Part shown: positions 1-10,811 of the stretch, in pieces
Numbering within the stretch: the first letter of the stretch is position 1
Layout: the number at the start of each line of letters is the position of its first letter
NCBI GenBank assembly: GCA_964452795.1
Contig: CAYVOE010000151.1
Coordinates: 1-10,811, forward strand
Origin: an uncultured Nitrospiraceae bacterium
GTDB lineage: Bacteria > Hydrogenedentota > Hydrogenedentia > Hydrogenedentales > SLHB01
Reading direction: 5' to 3'
DNA length: 10,811 nucleotides
Notes under the pieces: model-generated
The model's database searches: none
Told to the model about the DNA's origin: nothing
The model's input: the letters and a program-made list of their open reading frames with translations, nothing else
Position numbers and translations under genes: made by a program

Positions 1-662
1 TAGCCCAGGGTCAGCGAGCGACAGCGAGCGCCACCCTGGGATCAGGACCACACCCACCCCCGTCTTTTCCCCGAAGGGGATCCATACGTAGGCATACAGG
101 TCAGCCATTCGCTCGGTCTGTTCCGCCACCGACATGTGCCCCGGTCATCGCCGGCCTGTGAGGACTGCGCCCAACGGGGTCATGAGCCTGCCCCAACCCG
201 TCATTGCGAGGAGCGATCGCGTGCGCAAACGCTTGCGGCAGGAGGGTTTACAATGATCGAATCCATGCCGTTTGTGAGCGCACGGGCATAAGCGACGCGG
301 CAATCTCACCCGTGGTAGGACTACAGGCTTAGGTCAAAGGCTCATGTGAGATTGCCGCGTCGCTTATGTAGGGGTGCCCACCGAAGGTATGGGTGCAACC
401 AACGGTTGCTCCCCCGCATCCTCTTTACTCCTACAGGGGGTCCGCTCCTCGCAATGACGGGTGGGGGCACCCTCACCTCCCCATCCAGCGCAGTCCTCGC
501 AGTCATGCGACGGGTGGGGGCGTCGTCAATCCCGCTGCTGCCGTGTCTAATGGTTAGCCGGTATCGCTGCGTATGTATCCCCTTCGGGGAAAAGAACGGG
601 GGTGGGTGGTGGTGGACCTGATCCCAGGGTGGCGCTCGCTTACGCTCGCTGACCCTGGGCTA
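1..662. repeat. Large nested imperfect palindrome (structured repeat element, copy A). Concentric inverted-repeat pairs: P0 1-92 vs 571-662 (about 90 bp, about 6 differences); P1 158-170 vs 489-501; P2 196-215 vs 444-463 (20 bp perfect); P3 288-310 vs 345-367 (23 bp perfect). All are centred near 328. Non-coding; may extend left of the window.
   Basis: Direct reading: the reverse complement of 617-662 matches 1-46 with 2 mismatches, and the reverse complement of 571-616 matches 47-92 with small indels. acccgtcattgcgaggagcg pairs with cgctcctcgcaatgacgggt. cataagcgacgcggcaatctcac pairs with gtgagattgccgcgtcgcttatg. gtgaggactgcgc pairs with gcgcagtcctcgc (one G-T). The only ORF inside (346-621) has junk-like composition. 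Confidence 0.7.
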
Positions 663-775
663 AATCATGTATCCCCTTCGGGGAATTTTCCGCGGTTCGA
701 GTTCAGCCCCGAAAGGGTCGCGACGCAGGTCGACCTGAATCCCTGCGCATGTATCCCTTCGGGGCATCGTCCACG
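571..775 (+). repeat. Degenerate tandem array (period about 82-92 bp) of a 17-nt motif ATGTATCCCCTTCGGGG, containing a C(UUCG)G tetraloop hairpin. Copies at 573-589, 667-683 and 749-764, with an inverted copy at 69-87 inside P0. A C(GAAA)G GNRA-type hairpin lies at 707-717.
   Basis: Three direct copies were read off the + strand. The units also share gacctga(a)tccc near their 3' ends. The tetraloop stems are CCCC/GGGG and CCC/GGG. Confidence 0.6.
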
Positions 776-825
776 GCCAAGCGAGCGGTGAGTCTGGGCC
801 GGGGAAAGCGGTGGGGCGCCGGGGG

Positions 826-2850: not shown

Positions 2851-3212
2851 CGTCCGAGTCCTCCCTGGTGGCGCGTAACGCGCGTCCCTAATGTACGCTC
2901 CGGAACGGCGTTGCGACAACACATTTTTCCGAACCGGCCGCACGGCGGGGCGGGCCAATCCGGTGCGTCCCTTGGTCGGTGAAACTCGCATGCGAGCGTC
3001 GCCAACTTGAGGCGTCGCTAACCACATCGGCTCCTGGGCAAGAACGGCCGAGTTTTCGGCAAACCACGTCCATTCAGTGACTTAACCCCGTCTTCGCCGC
3101 TTGGCATGAGGATTGTTTATTCAGGAAACGGCTCCCGGAGTACGTACGGCCCGGAGGCGATTGGGTGATGCGGCAAAGAGGAATCGGCTCGACCCGCGCC
3201 CCCGCAATTCTC

Positions 3213-3315: not shown

Positions 3316-3927
3316 ATGACAACCATATTCATGGTGTGCGCGGTGGCGGGCTCGGTTATCGTGGTGGTCCAGTTCATCCTGTCCCTGGCGGGCGTCGGCC
3401 ACGACTTCGACTCCGACTTCTCGGCCGACGGGGCGGACGCGTTCGATCCCGGCGCCGGCCACTTCGATCATCCGCCCGGTCACGAGGGCGGCCATTTCTT
3501 CGGGATCCTCAGTTTTCGATCCGTGGTGGCGGCCCTGGCCGTCTTCGGCCTGGCGGGACTGGCGTCGGACACGGCGGGCTTTCCGCAGGGCGTGTCCTTC
3601 GTGGCGGCCCTGGCCGCGGGCGCGGCGGCGCTGGTGCTGGTGGCGTGGACCATGCGTTTTCTCTACGGCCTGCGCGACGACGGCACAGTGCACATCGAGC
3701 GGGCCGTGGGCCACACGGGCACGGTCTATCTGAAAGTGCCGGCGGCGCGGGCCGGAGCGGGCAAGGTCTTTCTAAACCTGCAGAACCGGACCGTCGAGCT
3801 TCAGGCGGTGACGGCGGAGGAAAGCGCCCTCCCGGCGGGGGCGCCTGTGGTGGTCGTGGGAGTCGTGGGTCCAAACACGGTGGAAGTGGAGCCGGTAGCG
3901 CGGGAGGAGAGACACGTCCATGCCTAG
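3316..3927 (+). CDS. nfeD: NfeD-like membrane protein (short form, YuaF/YqiJ-like; 203 aa): an N-terminal TM helix, a His/Asp-rich loop, two further TM helices and a C-terminal OB-fold beta domain.
   Basis: Membrane topology plus a C-terminal beta-rich domain (GTVYLKV...VVVVGVVGPNTVEVEPV). The gene overlaps the start of the downstream flotillin gene by 8 nt, which is the canonical NfeD-SPFH operon arrangement. GGGAGA RBS. Confidence 0.75.
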   Translation: MTTIFMVCAVAGSVIVVVQFILSLAGVGHDFDSDFSADGADAFDPGAGHFDHPPGHEGGHFFGILSFRSVVAALAVFGLAGLASDTAGFPQGVSFVAALAAGAAALVLVAWTMRFLYGLRDDGTVHIERAVGHTGTVYLKVPAARAGAGKVFLNLQNRTVELQAVTAEESALPAGAPVVVVGVVGPNTVEVEPVAREERHVHA

Positions 3928-5635
3928 TCTGTTTGTGAACATGCCGCTGGTGATGCTGGCGATCATCGTTCTGATCCTGTTCGTGGGCTTCGTGCTCCTG
4001 CTCGCGAACCGGTACAAGCGCTGCCCGAGCAACCGGGTCCTGGTGATCTTCGGTAAGGTGGGCACGGGACAGACGTGCAAAACCATACACGGCGGCGCGG
4101 CCTTCGTGTTGCCGCTGGTCCAGGACTATGCCTTCCTGAGCCTCGAACCCCTCCAGATCGAGGTGCCCCTGCGCGATGCCCTGTCCATCGAGAACATCCG
4201 GGTCAACGTGCCGAGCGTGTTCACGGTGGCGGTGGGCACGGAACCGGAGGTGATGCAGAACGCGGCCATCCGTTTGCTGGGCCTCGATAACAACCAGATC
4301 CGCAAGCAGACGGAAGACATCATCTTCGGTCAGCTCCGCCAGGTCATCGCCACGATGCACATCGAGGACATCAACCGCGATCGCGAGCAGTTCCTCGCCA
4401 ACATCCAGAATTCGGTCGAACCGGAGCTGCGCAAGATCGGCCTCGTGCTCATCAACGTCAACATCACCGACATCACCGATGCCTCGGGCTACATCGAGGC
4501 CATCGGACAGAAGGCGGCGTCCCAGGCGATTCAGCAGGCCCGGGGCGACGTGGCCGAGCAGGAGAAGCTGGGCGAGGTGCGCGTGGCCGAGGCCGAGCGC
4601 GAGAAGCTGGTCCAGGTGGCCAACGCCAACCGGTCGCGCGAGATCGGCATTCGGGAAGCCCAGCGGGACCAGGCGGTCCGGGTGGCCGAGCTCGAGCGCG
4701 AGCAGAAGGTCGCCGAACAGGCGGCCGTCTTCGCCCGCGACGCCCAGGTCAAAGACGAAGAGCGCAAGATGCGCATCGCCATGGCCGAGGCCAACGCCAA
4801 GGCCGTCCAGGGCGAGAACGAGGCCCAGGCCATCGTCGCCGATACCAATGCCCAGTTGCAGGTGCGCCAGGCGGCGGCCAATGCCACGGCCATCGAGGGC
4901 GAAAACACGGCCAACGCCGCCATCGCCGCGTCGAACGCCCAACTGCAGGTGAAACGGGCCGAGGCCTTCCAGCTCGGCGAGACGCGCAAACGCGAGGCCG
5001 AGGCCGCCGTGCTCGAGGCCCAGAACCGGGCGTTGGCGAAGGCCGCCCTCGCCGAGGCGGAAAAGGTGGAGGCGGAGCGCCGGGCCGAACTCGAAGCGCC
5101 CGCCAAGGCCGAGAAGGCCAGGGCCATCGTCGAGGCCGAGGCCGTTGCCGAACGCACCCGCATCGAGGCCGAAGGCGAGGCCAAGGCGATCTTCTCGAAG
5201 CTCGAGGCCGAGGCCCTGGGCCAGTACCAGATCCTGATGAAGAAGGGCGAGGGCCTGCGCGCCATCATCGAGGCCGCCGGCGGCGCCGGACCCGCCTTCC
5301 AGCTCCTCTTGCTCGAGCACCTGGACACCCTGGCTCAGACCGCGGCCCAGGCCATCTCGAACATCAAGTTCGACAAGGTCATCGTGTGGGAAGGGGGCGG
5401 ACAGAACGGCCACAGCAACACGGCCAGCTTTCTTCAGAGCTTCGCCCGCAGCATGCCGCCCATGCTCCAGATCATGAAGGACAACGGCGGCATCGAGCTG
5501 CCCGAATCCCTGGTCAAGATCGCCGAGGTCTCTTCCGACGGCGCGCGGCCCGCACCCGTCAAGGCCGACACCCCCGTGCCCAGGCCGAAGGACCCCGAGG
5601 AGGCCACCCCCATCGTGCCCCAGGCCCAGGCCTGA
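3920..5635 (+). CDS. floT: Flotillin-like SPFH/band-7 protein (FloT/YqiK family; 571 aa): an N-terminal membrane anchor, an SPFH domain and a long Ala/Glu-rich coiled coil.
   Basis: NRYKRCPSNRVLVIFGKVG...HGGAAFVLPLVQDYAFLSLEPLQIEVP is the characteristic flotillin SPFH N-terminus, followed by extended EA-repeat coiled-coil segments. GGAGGAGAG RBS. Confidence 0.88.
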   Translation: MPSLFVNMPLVMLAIIVLILFVGFVLLLANRYKRCPSNRVLVIFGKVGTGQTCKTIHGGAAFVLPLVQDYAFLSLEPLQIEVPLRDALSIENIRVNVPSVFTVAVGTEPEVMQNAAIRLLGLDNNQIRKQTEDIIFGQLRQVIATMHIEDINRDREQFLANIQNSVEPELRKIGLVLINVNITDITDASGYIEAIGQKAASQAIQQARGDVAEQEKLGEVRVAEAEREKLVQVANANRSREIGIREAQRDQAVRVAELEREQKVAEQAAVFARDAQVKDEERKMRIAMAEANAKAVQGENEAQAIVADTNAQLQVRQAAANATAIEGENTANAAIAASNAQLQVKRAEAFQLGETRKREAEAAVLEAQNRALAKAALAEAEKVEAERRAELEAPAKAEKARAIVEAEAVAERTRIEAEGEAKAIFSKLEAEALGQYQILMKKGEGLRAIIEAAGGAGPAFQLLLLEHLDTLAQTAAQAISNIKFDKVIVWEGGGQNGHSNTASFLQSFARSMPPMLQIMKDNGGIELPESLVKIAEVSSDGARPAPVKADTPVPRPKDPEEATPIVPQAQA

Positions 5636-5665
5636 GGGTCGTGGGTCGGCCCTGATGCAGGGGCA

Positions 5666-5711
5666 ATGAAAAACGACAGGCCCGGGCTTGCGTAAGAACA
5701 AGCCCGGGCCT
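5666..5711 (-). terminator. Intrinsic terminator for nrdR on the - strand. The hairpin aggcccgggcttg/caagcccgggcct (13 bp) is followed on the - strand by CGTTTTT. It may also act as a U-tract-less terminator for the flotillin gene on the + strand.
   Basis: A perfect 13-bp stem at 5678-5711 with an 8-nt loop; the A-run at 5668-5676 on + corresponds to a T-run on the - strand. Confidence 0.75.
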
Positions 5712-5782
5712 GTGGTCTGAAAGGTCCGTTAATTTCCGTGGGCCCCGCCGTTGCCCGTGACCGCTTCCCCGTGGAAAGGACC

Positions 5783-6232
5783 TCAGGTAAGAAGGTCTTT
5801 CAACTCGTTCATGAATTCGTTGAGGTCTTTGAACTGGCGATAGACGGAGGCGAAGCGGACGTAGGCGACTTCGTCGAGGCGGCGCAGGCGCTCCATCACG
5901 GCGAGGCCGATGTCTTCGGTGGAGACTTCGTGTTCGCTCGAGTTGAACAGGGAGCGTTCGACGTCGTCGATGAGGGCGTCCACCTGATCGAGGCTGACCG
6001 GACGCTTCTCGCAGGCCTTGAGGATGCCGCTCTTGACTTTCCAGCGGTCGAAGGTCTCGCGGCGGCCGTCTTTCTTGATGACCATCTGGGCGACTTCTTC
6101 GATGCGTTCGTAGGTGGTGAAACGTCGCCCGCACTTGAGGCATTCGCGGCGTCGGCGGATGGCGTCGCCTTCTTTGGATGACCGCGAATCGACCACTTTT
6201 CCCTCGAGGTGGTTGCAGAAGGGGCATCTCAT
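5783..6232 (-). CDS. nrdR: Transcriptional repressor NrdR (149 aa): an N-terminal zinc ribbon and an ATP-cone domain.
   Basis: [42 protein letters not shown] carries the conserved CxxC...CxxC ribbon, followed by an ATP-cone. Confidence 0.95.
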
Positions 6233-10409: not shown

Positions 10410-10811
10410 GGTACACCAGCCACCATCCTGCCGTCATGTCCCTGGTTAAGGATATATACGTAGCGATGCGGGCCAGTCATTGGGCGGGGCCGTTCTGGGA
10501 TCGACATCGGCTTCACCCGTCGTAGGATTACGAGGACTGCGCTTGGCCCGCTCCTTGCCATGACACATTCCGTCATTGCGAGGAGCGGGCTCCCGGGGCT
10601 GAACCTCGCCTGGGCGCCTTTGAACACATGCGCACCATTGCCGTCCCGAAGCGTCCATACAGGAGCGACGCGGCAATCTCACCTGAGCCTTTGATCCCTG
10701 TCCGCGAAGTCATCGTCATCCCACAGGTAAAGATTGCCGCGTCGCTCTGTCTGGGTGCCCACAGAGGGTGTGGGCAGAATCGATGTAAACCCGCCTTTCG
10801 TAAGCACTTCC
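10410..10811. repeat. Second copy (B) of the structured palindromic repeat element, in the same orientation as copy A and truncated by the window end. Conserved blocks: gaggactgcgc (10533-10543), ccgtcattgcgaggagcg (10571-10588), and the P3 arms gagcgacgcggcaatct (10663-10679) and agattgccgcgtcgctc (10731-10747).
   Basis: Block-wise identity to copy A, with identical linker lengths (27-28 nt and 74 nt) but unalignable linker sequences. The left flank (10416-10531) is homologous to A 47-157. The region after P3' (ctgtctgggtgcccacagagggtgtgggca) is homologous to A 364-396. Confidence 0.65.

Follow-up and report, generated by a model that had tools for sequence, protein, structure and literature searches.

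The window analysed here is an entire NCBI contig of 10,811 bp (CAYVOE010000151.1, assembly GCA_964452795.1) from an uncultured bacterium placed by GTDB in the Hydrogenedentota, and its first 662 positions form a nested palindrome. This element is most likely an unusually large, layered, split-arm form of an already known kind of bacterial repeat. The genes of the contig are ordinary chromosomal ones: a small open reading frame (ORF) on the minus strand (826–1206), an FKBP isomerase, a cold-shock protein, a Band-7/flotillin protein directly preceded by a 203-aa ORF (3316–3927) without Pfam match, NrdR, an RsmD-like methyltransferase, a PilT-like ATPase and an ATP-grasp ligase. The repeat occupies both ends of the contig (positions 1 and 10811). 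From the stop of the minus-strand gene (826–1179/1206) to copy 1, the palindrome, is about 160 nt, and about 30 nt separate the stop of the ATP-grasp gene from the start of copy 2; such a location just 3′ of genes is typical of repetitive extragenic palindromic (REP) sequences (Di Nocera et al. 2013, PMC3733652). The 10.8-kb contig holds no gene for a transposase, reverse transcriptase, TnpB/IscB or recombinase, in agreement with an earlier note on this DNA, made from the sequence alone, which had also concluded that the factor acting on the element is encoded elsewhere. The same note had observed that the left edge of the element coincides with the start of the window, and the contig really does end there. 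In Logan, two independent assemblies of this organism (L001 and L002, 99.6–99.9% identical) break at window positions 849 and 667, and the repeat evidently fragments short-read assemblies. A scan of positions 1–1400 found no sigma-70-like promoter and no intrinsic terminator, ARAGORN found no tRNA or tmRNA, and blastn of window 1–800 gave no match among plasmid and phage records. A 91-aa ORF at 346–621, itself not on record, drew one NCBI protein (P0001) in a homology search.

An exhaustive anti-diagonal scan resolved the imperfect palindrome into seven perfect inverted blocks of 11–24 bp, whose centres all fall at 327.5–331.5: 1–20/643–662 (20 bp), 23–46/617–640 (24 bp), 51–63/596–608 (13 bp), 63–81/577–595 (19 bp), 160–170/488–498 (11 bp), 196–215/443–462 (20 bp), and 287–309/346–368 (23 bp). 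When the left half is aligned globally with the reverse-complemented right half, these blocks are separated by poorly matching stretches in which complementarity is near-random (17 of 27 positions in the linker, 44 of 78 in the inserts). The palindrome nested on one shared centre that the earlier note described is therefore real, with slightly different block sizes. Its "90-bp" outer pair corresponds to the first four blocks, which do pair but are joined across two mismatches and small indels; its "13-bp" pair is either the 13-bp block at 51–63 or the 11-bp perfect block at 160–170. The non-complementary linkers of matched length that it reported were recovered as well. The minimum free energy of positions 1–690 is −460 kcal/mol, as against −287 ± 8.6 for shuffled sequences (z = −20.2), and the opposite strand folds equally well (z = −20.1). 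For the core blocks, 0.00–0.01 chance matches are expected in the window.

From the outside inwards, the left outermost arm (1–46) pairs with 617–662 and is itself a local hairpin, CCCAGGGT at 4–11 with ACCCTGGG at 33–40. The inner part of this outer arm (51–81) consists of CACCCACCCCCGT and a mini-hairpin, CCCCGAAGGGG (69–79), and pairs with 577–608. The left flank module that follows (82–159, beginning GGATCCATACGTAGGCATAC) is about 65–70% complementary to 499–576 and homologous to 10440–10531 of copy 2. The plus-strand block GAGGACTGCGC at 160–170 pairs with 488–498 and is kept at 10–11 of its 11 positions in W2, L034, L035, and L036, described below. Next, all on the plus strand, come a 27-nt linker of type A (171–197), the left-arm head block CCGTCATTGCGAGGAGCG (198–215) with its CGTC tag, a 75-nt apical insert (216–290) that neither complements the right insert nor folds significantly by itself, and the left-arm tail block AGCGACGCGGCAATCTCAC (291–309). 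The central spacer (310–345) holds GGTCAAAGGCTCA at 332–344. Beyond it the series is repeated on the minus strand: the right-arm tail block (346–364; GTGAGATTGCCGCGTCGCT on the plus strand), a 78-nt right apical insert (365–442), the right-arm head block (443–460; CGCTCCTCGCAATGACGG on the plus strand), and the right 27-nt linker with GCGCAGTCCTC at 488–498 (461–498 in all). The right flank module and right outer arm (499–662) contain the hairpin CCCCTTCGGGG (579–589) and the outer hairpin formed by CCCAGGGT (623–630) and ACCCTGGG (652–659).

Further hairpin repeats of the composite lie at 69–79, 579–589, 673–683, and 755–764. They belong to a mini-hairpin repeat, ATGTATCCC(C)TTCGGGG(AA), present in four copies: 573–591, 667–685, and 749–767 on the plus strand and 67–85 on the minus strand. 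The three direct copies, at intervals of 82–94 nt, start within the palindrome and reach the 3′ region of the gene at 826–1206; the last two, which read ATGTATCCC(C)TTCGGGG, lie beyond the palindrome, in 663–767. Since the 19-nt hairpin at 667–685 has its inverted partner at 67–85, and since an Rfam-type motif spans 623–685, past the right end of the palindrome, the symmetry may have extended about 23 nt to the left of position 1. That motif is a sub-threshold match on the plus strand to Acido-Lenti-1 (RF01687; E 0.006–0.02), which covers the right outer hairpin, GGCUAAAUCAUG, and the CCCCUUCGGGG hairpin. Its two-hairpin layout, GGCUAA-U-AUG linker, and UUCG loop are shared with the Rfam family, whereas its score is 21.5 bits against a gathering threshold of 37, and it concerns the outermost module and the flank only, not the core of the palindrome; 623–685 may be a separate small repeat family and may give a hint of the lineage of the organism.

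The earlier note had proposed searching for further copies, and these exist. By alignment, a second, diverged copy of the inner element (W2) lies at about 10430–10811 on the plus strand, cut by the contig end. It comprises GAGGACTGCGC at 10532–10542, a head at 10570–10587 (CCGTCATTGCGAGGAGC at 10570), a 76-nt insert, a tail at 10664–10682 (AGCGACGCGGCAATCT at 10664), an inverted spacer (10683–10730), a right tail at 10731–10746, which is the inverted copy of the core block, and the start of a right insert. A scan of metagenomes added three relatives with the same layout of blocks and linkers, L034, L035 (cut), and L036, in unrelated contexts: L035 follows an aroA-like gene, as judged by reading its translation by eye, and L036 lies between two convergent ORFs known from their translations and not from Pfam.

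Three complete copies could thus be compared, W1 (window 120–545), L034, and L036. In each, complementary blocks of 11 nt (GAGGACTGCGC), 18 nt (head), and at least 16 nt (tail) alternate with linkers that are non-complementary (left 27–28 nt, right 27 nt) and with inserts of near-random complementarity (left 75 nt, right 76–78 nt). The family is a mosaic of at least four insert types and two unrelated linker types. Where W1 has its type-A linker at 171–197, other copies carry the unrelated type B, and the long-range pairing of this segment is therefore not conserved; the extra symmetry of W1 arises because both of its arms happen to share one linker type, whereas in the other copies the types differ. 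Insert types recombine among copies, and part of the right insert of W2 is the reverse complement of the left-insert type of L036. The latter copy, which is interior to its contig (735–1280), combines a single left arm with two right arms. As for the central spacer, W1 and L036 carry it in one orientation and W2 and L034 in the other, with no change in the direction of the arm inserts; this flip/flop, which can be followed in window 310–345 against 10683–10730, L034:174–224, and L036:912–955, is as expected from recombination between inverted arms. Arms inverted around a spacer, with linker and insert types shuffled among copies, are the organisation of a bacterial interspersed mosaic element (BIME), in which REP-type units alternate in orientation, with spacers either conserved or variable, in mosaic combinations at many loci. 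The outermost layers (1–81 / 577–662) are absent from the other copies, the 1–46 module being missing from copy 2, L034, and L036.

Across five copies, compensatory changes were found in a single local hairpin (right insert, about 372–395 on the plus strand, the only conserved one) and at two of its eight pairs. The inserts alone fold no better than shuffles. The idea that these 75–78-nt segments are variable spacers or guides was rejected, as they are homologous within types across copies, and a derivation from another repeat was dropped for want of any further matches.

The two inner helices are built from an arm of about 35 nt, (C)CGTCATTGCGAGGAGCG-n-AGCGACGCGGCAATCT. A scan of one genome per species for the two core blocks at a distance of 55–85 nt (N{55,85}, a pattern that itself imposes the constancy of insert length among the matches) gave at least 28 loci (L003–L030) from at least 10 phyla: Pseudomonadota, Chloroflexota, Bacillota, Bacteroidota, Campylobacterota, Thermodesulfobacteriota, Omnitrophota, KSB1, Planctomycetota, and Deinococcota. 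Inspection of these loci showed that the canonical unit is the unsplit arm of about 35 nt, GTCATTGCGAGGAGCG-n-AGCGACGCGGCAATCT. The arm, read as GTCATTGCGAGGAGCG-n-AGCGACG(C/T)GGCAATC, is nearly identical across the phyla, and so strict a conservation of head and tail points to recognition of the sequence by a protein and not to a generic stable stem. It occurs as inverted dimers with 30–70-nt spacers, as arrays of about 200-nt period in Dehalococcoidia (L009, L014), and as partial tandem repeats of the head with a period of 25–42 nt. In these last, the head and about 12 further nucleotides are repeated beside a complete arm (L005:5100–5300 and 5620–5900; L007, L012, L016, L030), which suggests that the head has repeatedly been a site of slippage or abortive copying. 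The unsplit arm was also found in 93 stretches of viral contigs (IMG/VR; L048–L140), 106 arms in total, while the split pattern had no match there. Because 101 of these 106 arms have no inverted partner within 160 nt, the single arm is taken as the basic unit.

Single arms also stand in frame within a gene that reads as a DegT/DnrJ/EryC1-type aminotransferase (L031:1524–1600, L032, L033, L037), directly after the motif IEDCAQALGA; in L037:10218–10380 there are three tandem copies of 42 nt, or 14 codons. These resemble the intragenic insertions of the Rickettsia RPEs. Truly split arms are found as well in Trueperaceae (L025 and L029, both arms), in an alphaproteobacterium (L028), and in L008. 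In the Trueperaceae (L025:2436–2640, L029:738–970), AT-rich inserts of about 50–62 nt (about 55 versus 50–62 nt on the two arms), unrelated to those of the window, split both arms at one and the same point; this is an independent occurrence of the split-arm design, in Deinococcota. A tRNA-like fragment beside the L008 arm was not confirmed by ARAGORN. Among the at least 28 loci listed, the neighbours are housekeeping genes, and a small GIY-YIG protein (PF01541), whose gene directly adjoins the repeat in L005 and L017, is the only recurrent nuclease; no transposase stood beside the arm loci inspected, and no RAYT was found in any locus. Literature searches with the raw motif strings returned unrelated primer matches only, and those on GIY-YIG and mobile palindromic repeats organellar papers only.

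A nuclease of this kind with a dedicated repeat has been described in Neisseria meningitidis. SsnA is a single-domain GIY-YIG protein of 94 aa (cd10448) that binds the hairpin repeat NTS, CGTCATTCCCGCGMAVGCGGGAATCYRG, as single-stranded DNA (ssDNA) only, and not as double-stranded DNA or RNA, and cuts a few nucleotides 5′ of it (Chenal et al. 2025, PMC11893778). The C after the NTS palindrome is critical for binding and the three nucleotides before the palindrome for cleavage, whereas the loop can be removed or extended; related hairpins, termed SRM, flank ssn in 71% of Ssn homologs (PMC11893778). Earlier, "CGTC-tagged REPs", which include Neisseria dRS3 and Rickettsia RPE-4/6, had been grouped together as repeats whose dimers can fold into one large stem-loop and which lie 3′ of ORFs and also within genes, no enzyme then being known for them (Di Nocera et al. 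2013, PMC3733652).

The arms of the window resemble NTS in sequence and in orientation. Their head, CGTCATT, is identical to that of NTS at 7 of 7 positions; CCGTCATT, which conforms to the oriented head (HGTCWY; CGTCAT in NTS), lies at 198–205, at 453–460 as reverse complement, and at 10570–10577. The tail GCGGCAATC(T) is present in all four tail blocks and agrees with GCGGGAATC at 8 of 9 positions (GCGG.AATC), and the C after the palindrome is there. Between head and tail, the stem differs from that of NTS by a complementary C>G / G>C swap. The CGTCAT head, the AT(T) start of the stem, and the GCGG.AATC tail with its binding-critical C are thus common to both, as is the behaviour of an oriented, high-copy repeat clustered around genes; the apical inserts of the window arms recall the loop extension tolerated in the published assays. 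In contrast, the stem of the window arm is ATTGC plus an irregular G/A-rich segment and not a GC stem of 8–9 bp, its apical insert measures 75–78 nt, and the arms form an inverted pair on a 300-bp scale inside extra palindromic layers.

Compared with CGTC-tagged REPs, the element shares the CGTC/TGTC tag, the AT start of the stem, inverted dimers that give one large stem-loop, heterodimers of non-identical partners, conserved or structured spacers, mosaic clusters, the position 3′ of ORFs, and relatives that occur as in-frame intragenic copies. It nevertheless falls outside their definition: tag (CGTC, TGTC/CCTC) and AT start are present, but stem, loop, and tail differ. The published repeats have stems of 8–9 bp, loops of 4–5 nt, a CCA tail, and mostly a head-to-head arrangement with 20–100-bp spacers, whereas the window has an arm of about 35 nt, a CTC tail, a tail-to-tail pair, and a composite of 660 bp. 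The REPIN/RAYT system offers a parallel in that a single-copy gene for a nuclease specific to ssDNA hairpins has its own repeat in its flanks and numerous non-autonomous inverted doublets lie elsewhere; its enzyme, however, is a domesticated IS200-like Y1 transposase (HUH/Y1) and not a GIY-YIG protein, and the core arms lack the GTAG head.

The arm is also linked to Ssn-like genes. In L005 and L017, a PF01541 GIY-YIG gene of 95–100 aa is bracketed on both sides by dimers of the ATTGC type, and the L017 protein has Y7, Y18, and E65 where SsnA has the catalytic Y6, Y17, and E64. Four further GIY-YIG loci were picked, from among homologs of this protein, by protein and not by motif (Bradyrhizobium L038–41, L042, L043, and L044–47), and 4 of 4 have flanking repeats of the same design, with stems that vary in a compensatory manner (ATTCC/GGAAT, ATCCT/AGGAT, CTCT/AGAG). 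The gene of L042 stands between an upstream arm and an inverted downstream one. The Bradyrhizobium SRMs contain apical nested hairpins. Several GIY-YIG calls (P0014, P0027, P0038, P0104) are extended at the N or C terminus by the translated flanking repeat, for example CHCERSVAIS, RLPRRCGSSQ*, and DSSLRSE*; these motif-encoded extensions are gene-calling artefacts caused by the repeats.

From these observations we conclude, with moderate confidence, that the element acts as DNA, that it is a mosaic of the BIME kind made up of Ssn-related, CGTC-tagged REP-type repeats, and that its nuclease, if present, is encoded elsewhere. Its functional core is the tail-to-tail inverted pair of one arm, CGTCATTGCGAGGAGCG...AGCGACGCGGCAATCTC. 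It is best described as a variant related to the SRM/NTS repeats, and not as an established member of that group, and it probably works as they do. What the sequences themselves establish is the repeat nature of the element, the layout of its family, the spread of the arm across phyla, and its place beside GIY-YIG genes; how Ssn behaves on NTS is known from published work, and a cognate Ssn in this genome and its action on split arms are inferred. As a duplex, the element would be inert. When it becomes single-stranded, as lagging-strand template, during repair, or on incoming transforming or conjugative DNA, the conserved blocks would pair locally or arm to arm and present the CGTC head, the AT-initiated stem, and the following C to a trans-encoded single-domain GIY-YIG nuclease of the Ssn type, which would bind the motif and nick the ssDNA on the 5′ side of the head, a few nucleotides away from it. 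The inversion of the two arms means that each strand would have one of them in cleavable orientation. Copies may spread and be shuffled by recombination or template switching, possibly through nuclease-dependent mobilisation; the conserved blocks would be kept by selection for protein recognition and by homogenisation against the many other copies in the genome, and the linkers and inserts would drift without changing in length.

Several results weigh against this interpretation. No GIY-YIG gene lies within the 10.8-kb contig, the only part of the genome searched. The published degenerate SRM string, HGTCWYN(0-2)YYVSBRHN(0-5)WNVSBRGN(0-2)RNCYNB, has no match in the window, L005, L017, L034, L036, L038, or L042–44, and one off-target match in L014; since it also misses clear Ssn-flanking repeats, including those of Bradyrhizobium, it is best regarded as a narrow operational filter. 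With DNA parameters, single ATTGC arms fold no better than shuffles, with or without inserts (z about +1 to −0.8 in all, +0.9 to −0.8 with the 75–78-nt inserts and −0.3 for the unsplit L014 arm, against −8.7 for a Bradyrhizobium SRM), and recognition of a local hairpin is for that reason undemonstrated. All that can be drawn by eye in a single arm is a 5-bp ATTGC/GCAAT closure with G-A mismatches, and the energy calculations do not support the idea that each arm is a self-folding hairpin closed in this way. For the putative Ssn proteins of the L005/L017 type, NCBIfam was uninformative and PDB gave only weak matches to UPF0213, and neither placed them in a named subfamily. A GIY-YIG gene is nearby in only 2 of the 121 motif-anchored loci listed, as expected of a single-copy gene with many repeats, so that the link runs from gene to motif only. 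The family sample is small (three complete and two cut relatives), and the outermost layers of the window (1–81 / 577–662) are outside the shared family and left unexplained by a model based on Ssn repeats.

Among the other explanations, a REP/BIME-type repeat that acts as RNA is unlikely, though less so than the others. Here the long hairpin, transcribed as the 3′ untranslated region of the flanking genes, would block 3′ exonucleases or signal termination or processing, and Ssn would be irrelevant. REPs do favour positions 3′ of ORFs, and an action as RNA is assumed for many of them (PMC3733652); both copies stand just past gene stops (about 160 and 30 nt), and the fold is extremely stable on both strands. 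However, the scan of 1–1400 revealed nothing like an intrinsic terminator, the strict conservation of head and tail across phyla argues for a protein that reads the sequence, and Ssn does not bind RNA (PMC11893778). A REP-like effect on the 3′ ends of neighbouring transcripts and a role for Ssn are compatible. A large structured non-coding RNA gene, which the earlier note had offered as OMEGA/HEARO-like, retron-like, or of a new class, with long-range helices P0–P3 enclosing multi-branch junctions, is quite improbable; under this view the 75–78-nt inserts would be functional domains. The lengths of blocks and linkers are indeed kept in three independent copies, the right-insert hairpin has retained its pairing through two-sided changes at two of eight pairs, and there are two weak, sub-threshold Rfam similarities, to Acido-Lenti-1 at 623–685 and to a SAH-riboswitch core in canonical arms. 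The latter concerns arm dimers at L014:2434–2576 and 2882–3024 (21.8 and 18.7 bits, gathering 37), arises because GAGGAGCGCnGCGAC resembles the riboswitch core, and was judged to be chance. In Rfam 15, on the other hand, whose families include HEARO/OMEGA, retron, and riboswitch RNAs, no part of the window reaches a gathering score, and a search of positions 1–900 with E ≤ 10 gave nothing relevant, Acido-Lenti-1 being the best match. Promoter, terminator, tRNA, and tmRNA are lacking in the scans given above, strand symmetry leaves no sense strand, the exchange of linker types A and B shows that long-range pairing is not maintained there, and the inserts do not fold by themselves. Arms that occur singly, in tandem, and inside ORFs behave as repeats and not as a gene; the picture of one gene-like locus fails before a multi-copy mosaic whose published cognate nuclease family binds ssDNA and not RNA (PMC11893778).

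A classical miniature inverted-repeat transposable element, derived from a DDE-type insertion sequence and mobilised in trans, with terminal inverted repeats at 1–81 / 577–662 and a target-site duplication such as TA (IS630/Tc1-like), is improbable. The element starts with TA-GCCCAGGG and ends with CCCTGGGC-TA, its inverted repeats are long and terminal, and it is multi-copy and dispersed; but these outer arms are the exact part lacking in the other copies and hence are not family termini, the conserved parts being internal. No transposase was found beside any locus inspected, and blastn of window 1–800 gave no similarity to plasmid or phage records. That the palindrome is a fold-back or chimeric contig end is highly improbable. 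It does sit exactly at the contig end, and the independent Logan contigs confirm the sequence only inward from position 667, but its imperfect arms and non-complementary linkers are unlike fold-back chimeras, and the same architecture is found inside independent metagenome contigs (L036 at 735–1280, L034) and at the other end of this contig. Of the options that the earlier note had listed, a DNA element that forms cruciforms or hairpins comes nearest to the Ssn-related mosaic preferred here. Its view that the organisation is atypical of REPs does not hold, given that the inner helices are made of a CGTC-headed repeat of REP type, which is scattered over at least 10 phyla and flanks Ssn-like GIY-YIG genes.

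Whether the split-arm form itself – an outer helix, unpaired strands of matched length, an inner helix, and a flippable spacer – is functional is a separate matter. That it is not decay but a four-way-junction substrate or an Ssn-mobilised element seems doubtful. Were it so, a four-way-junction ssDNA substrate would position the cuts of the nuclease on both strands, and an Ssn-mobilised element would be the first evidence of this nuclease family driving transposition-like spread.

More generally, the assignment to REP/BIME-type repeats keeps a striking 660-bp palindrome from being mistaken for a new class of RNA. It also bears on annotation: these repeats break assemblies, give rise to spurious ORFs and to extensions at the N or C terminus, and stand in frame in real genes, and the SAH-like core of the arm could cause false riboswitch calls. 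If the link to Ssn is confirmed, the Ssn-related repeats, which were described in 2025 and mostly in Pseudomonadati, would come to include an arm with an ATTGC stem, nearly identical in at least 10 phyla and common in viral contigs, yet missed by the published SRM string. It would also follow that the apex of the arm tolerates inserts of 55–80 nt in nature, in parallel with the loop extension of NTS in vitro, a tolerance that matters for the use of Ssn enzymes as programmable ssDNA tools.

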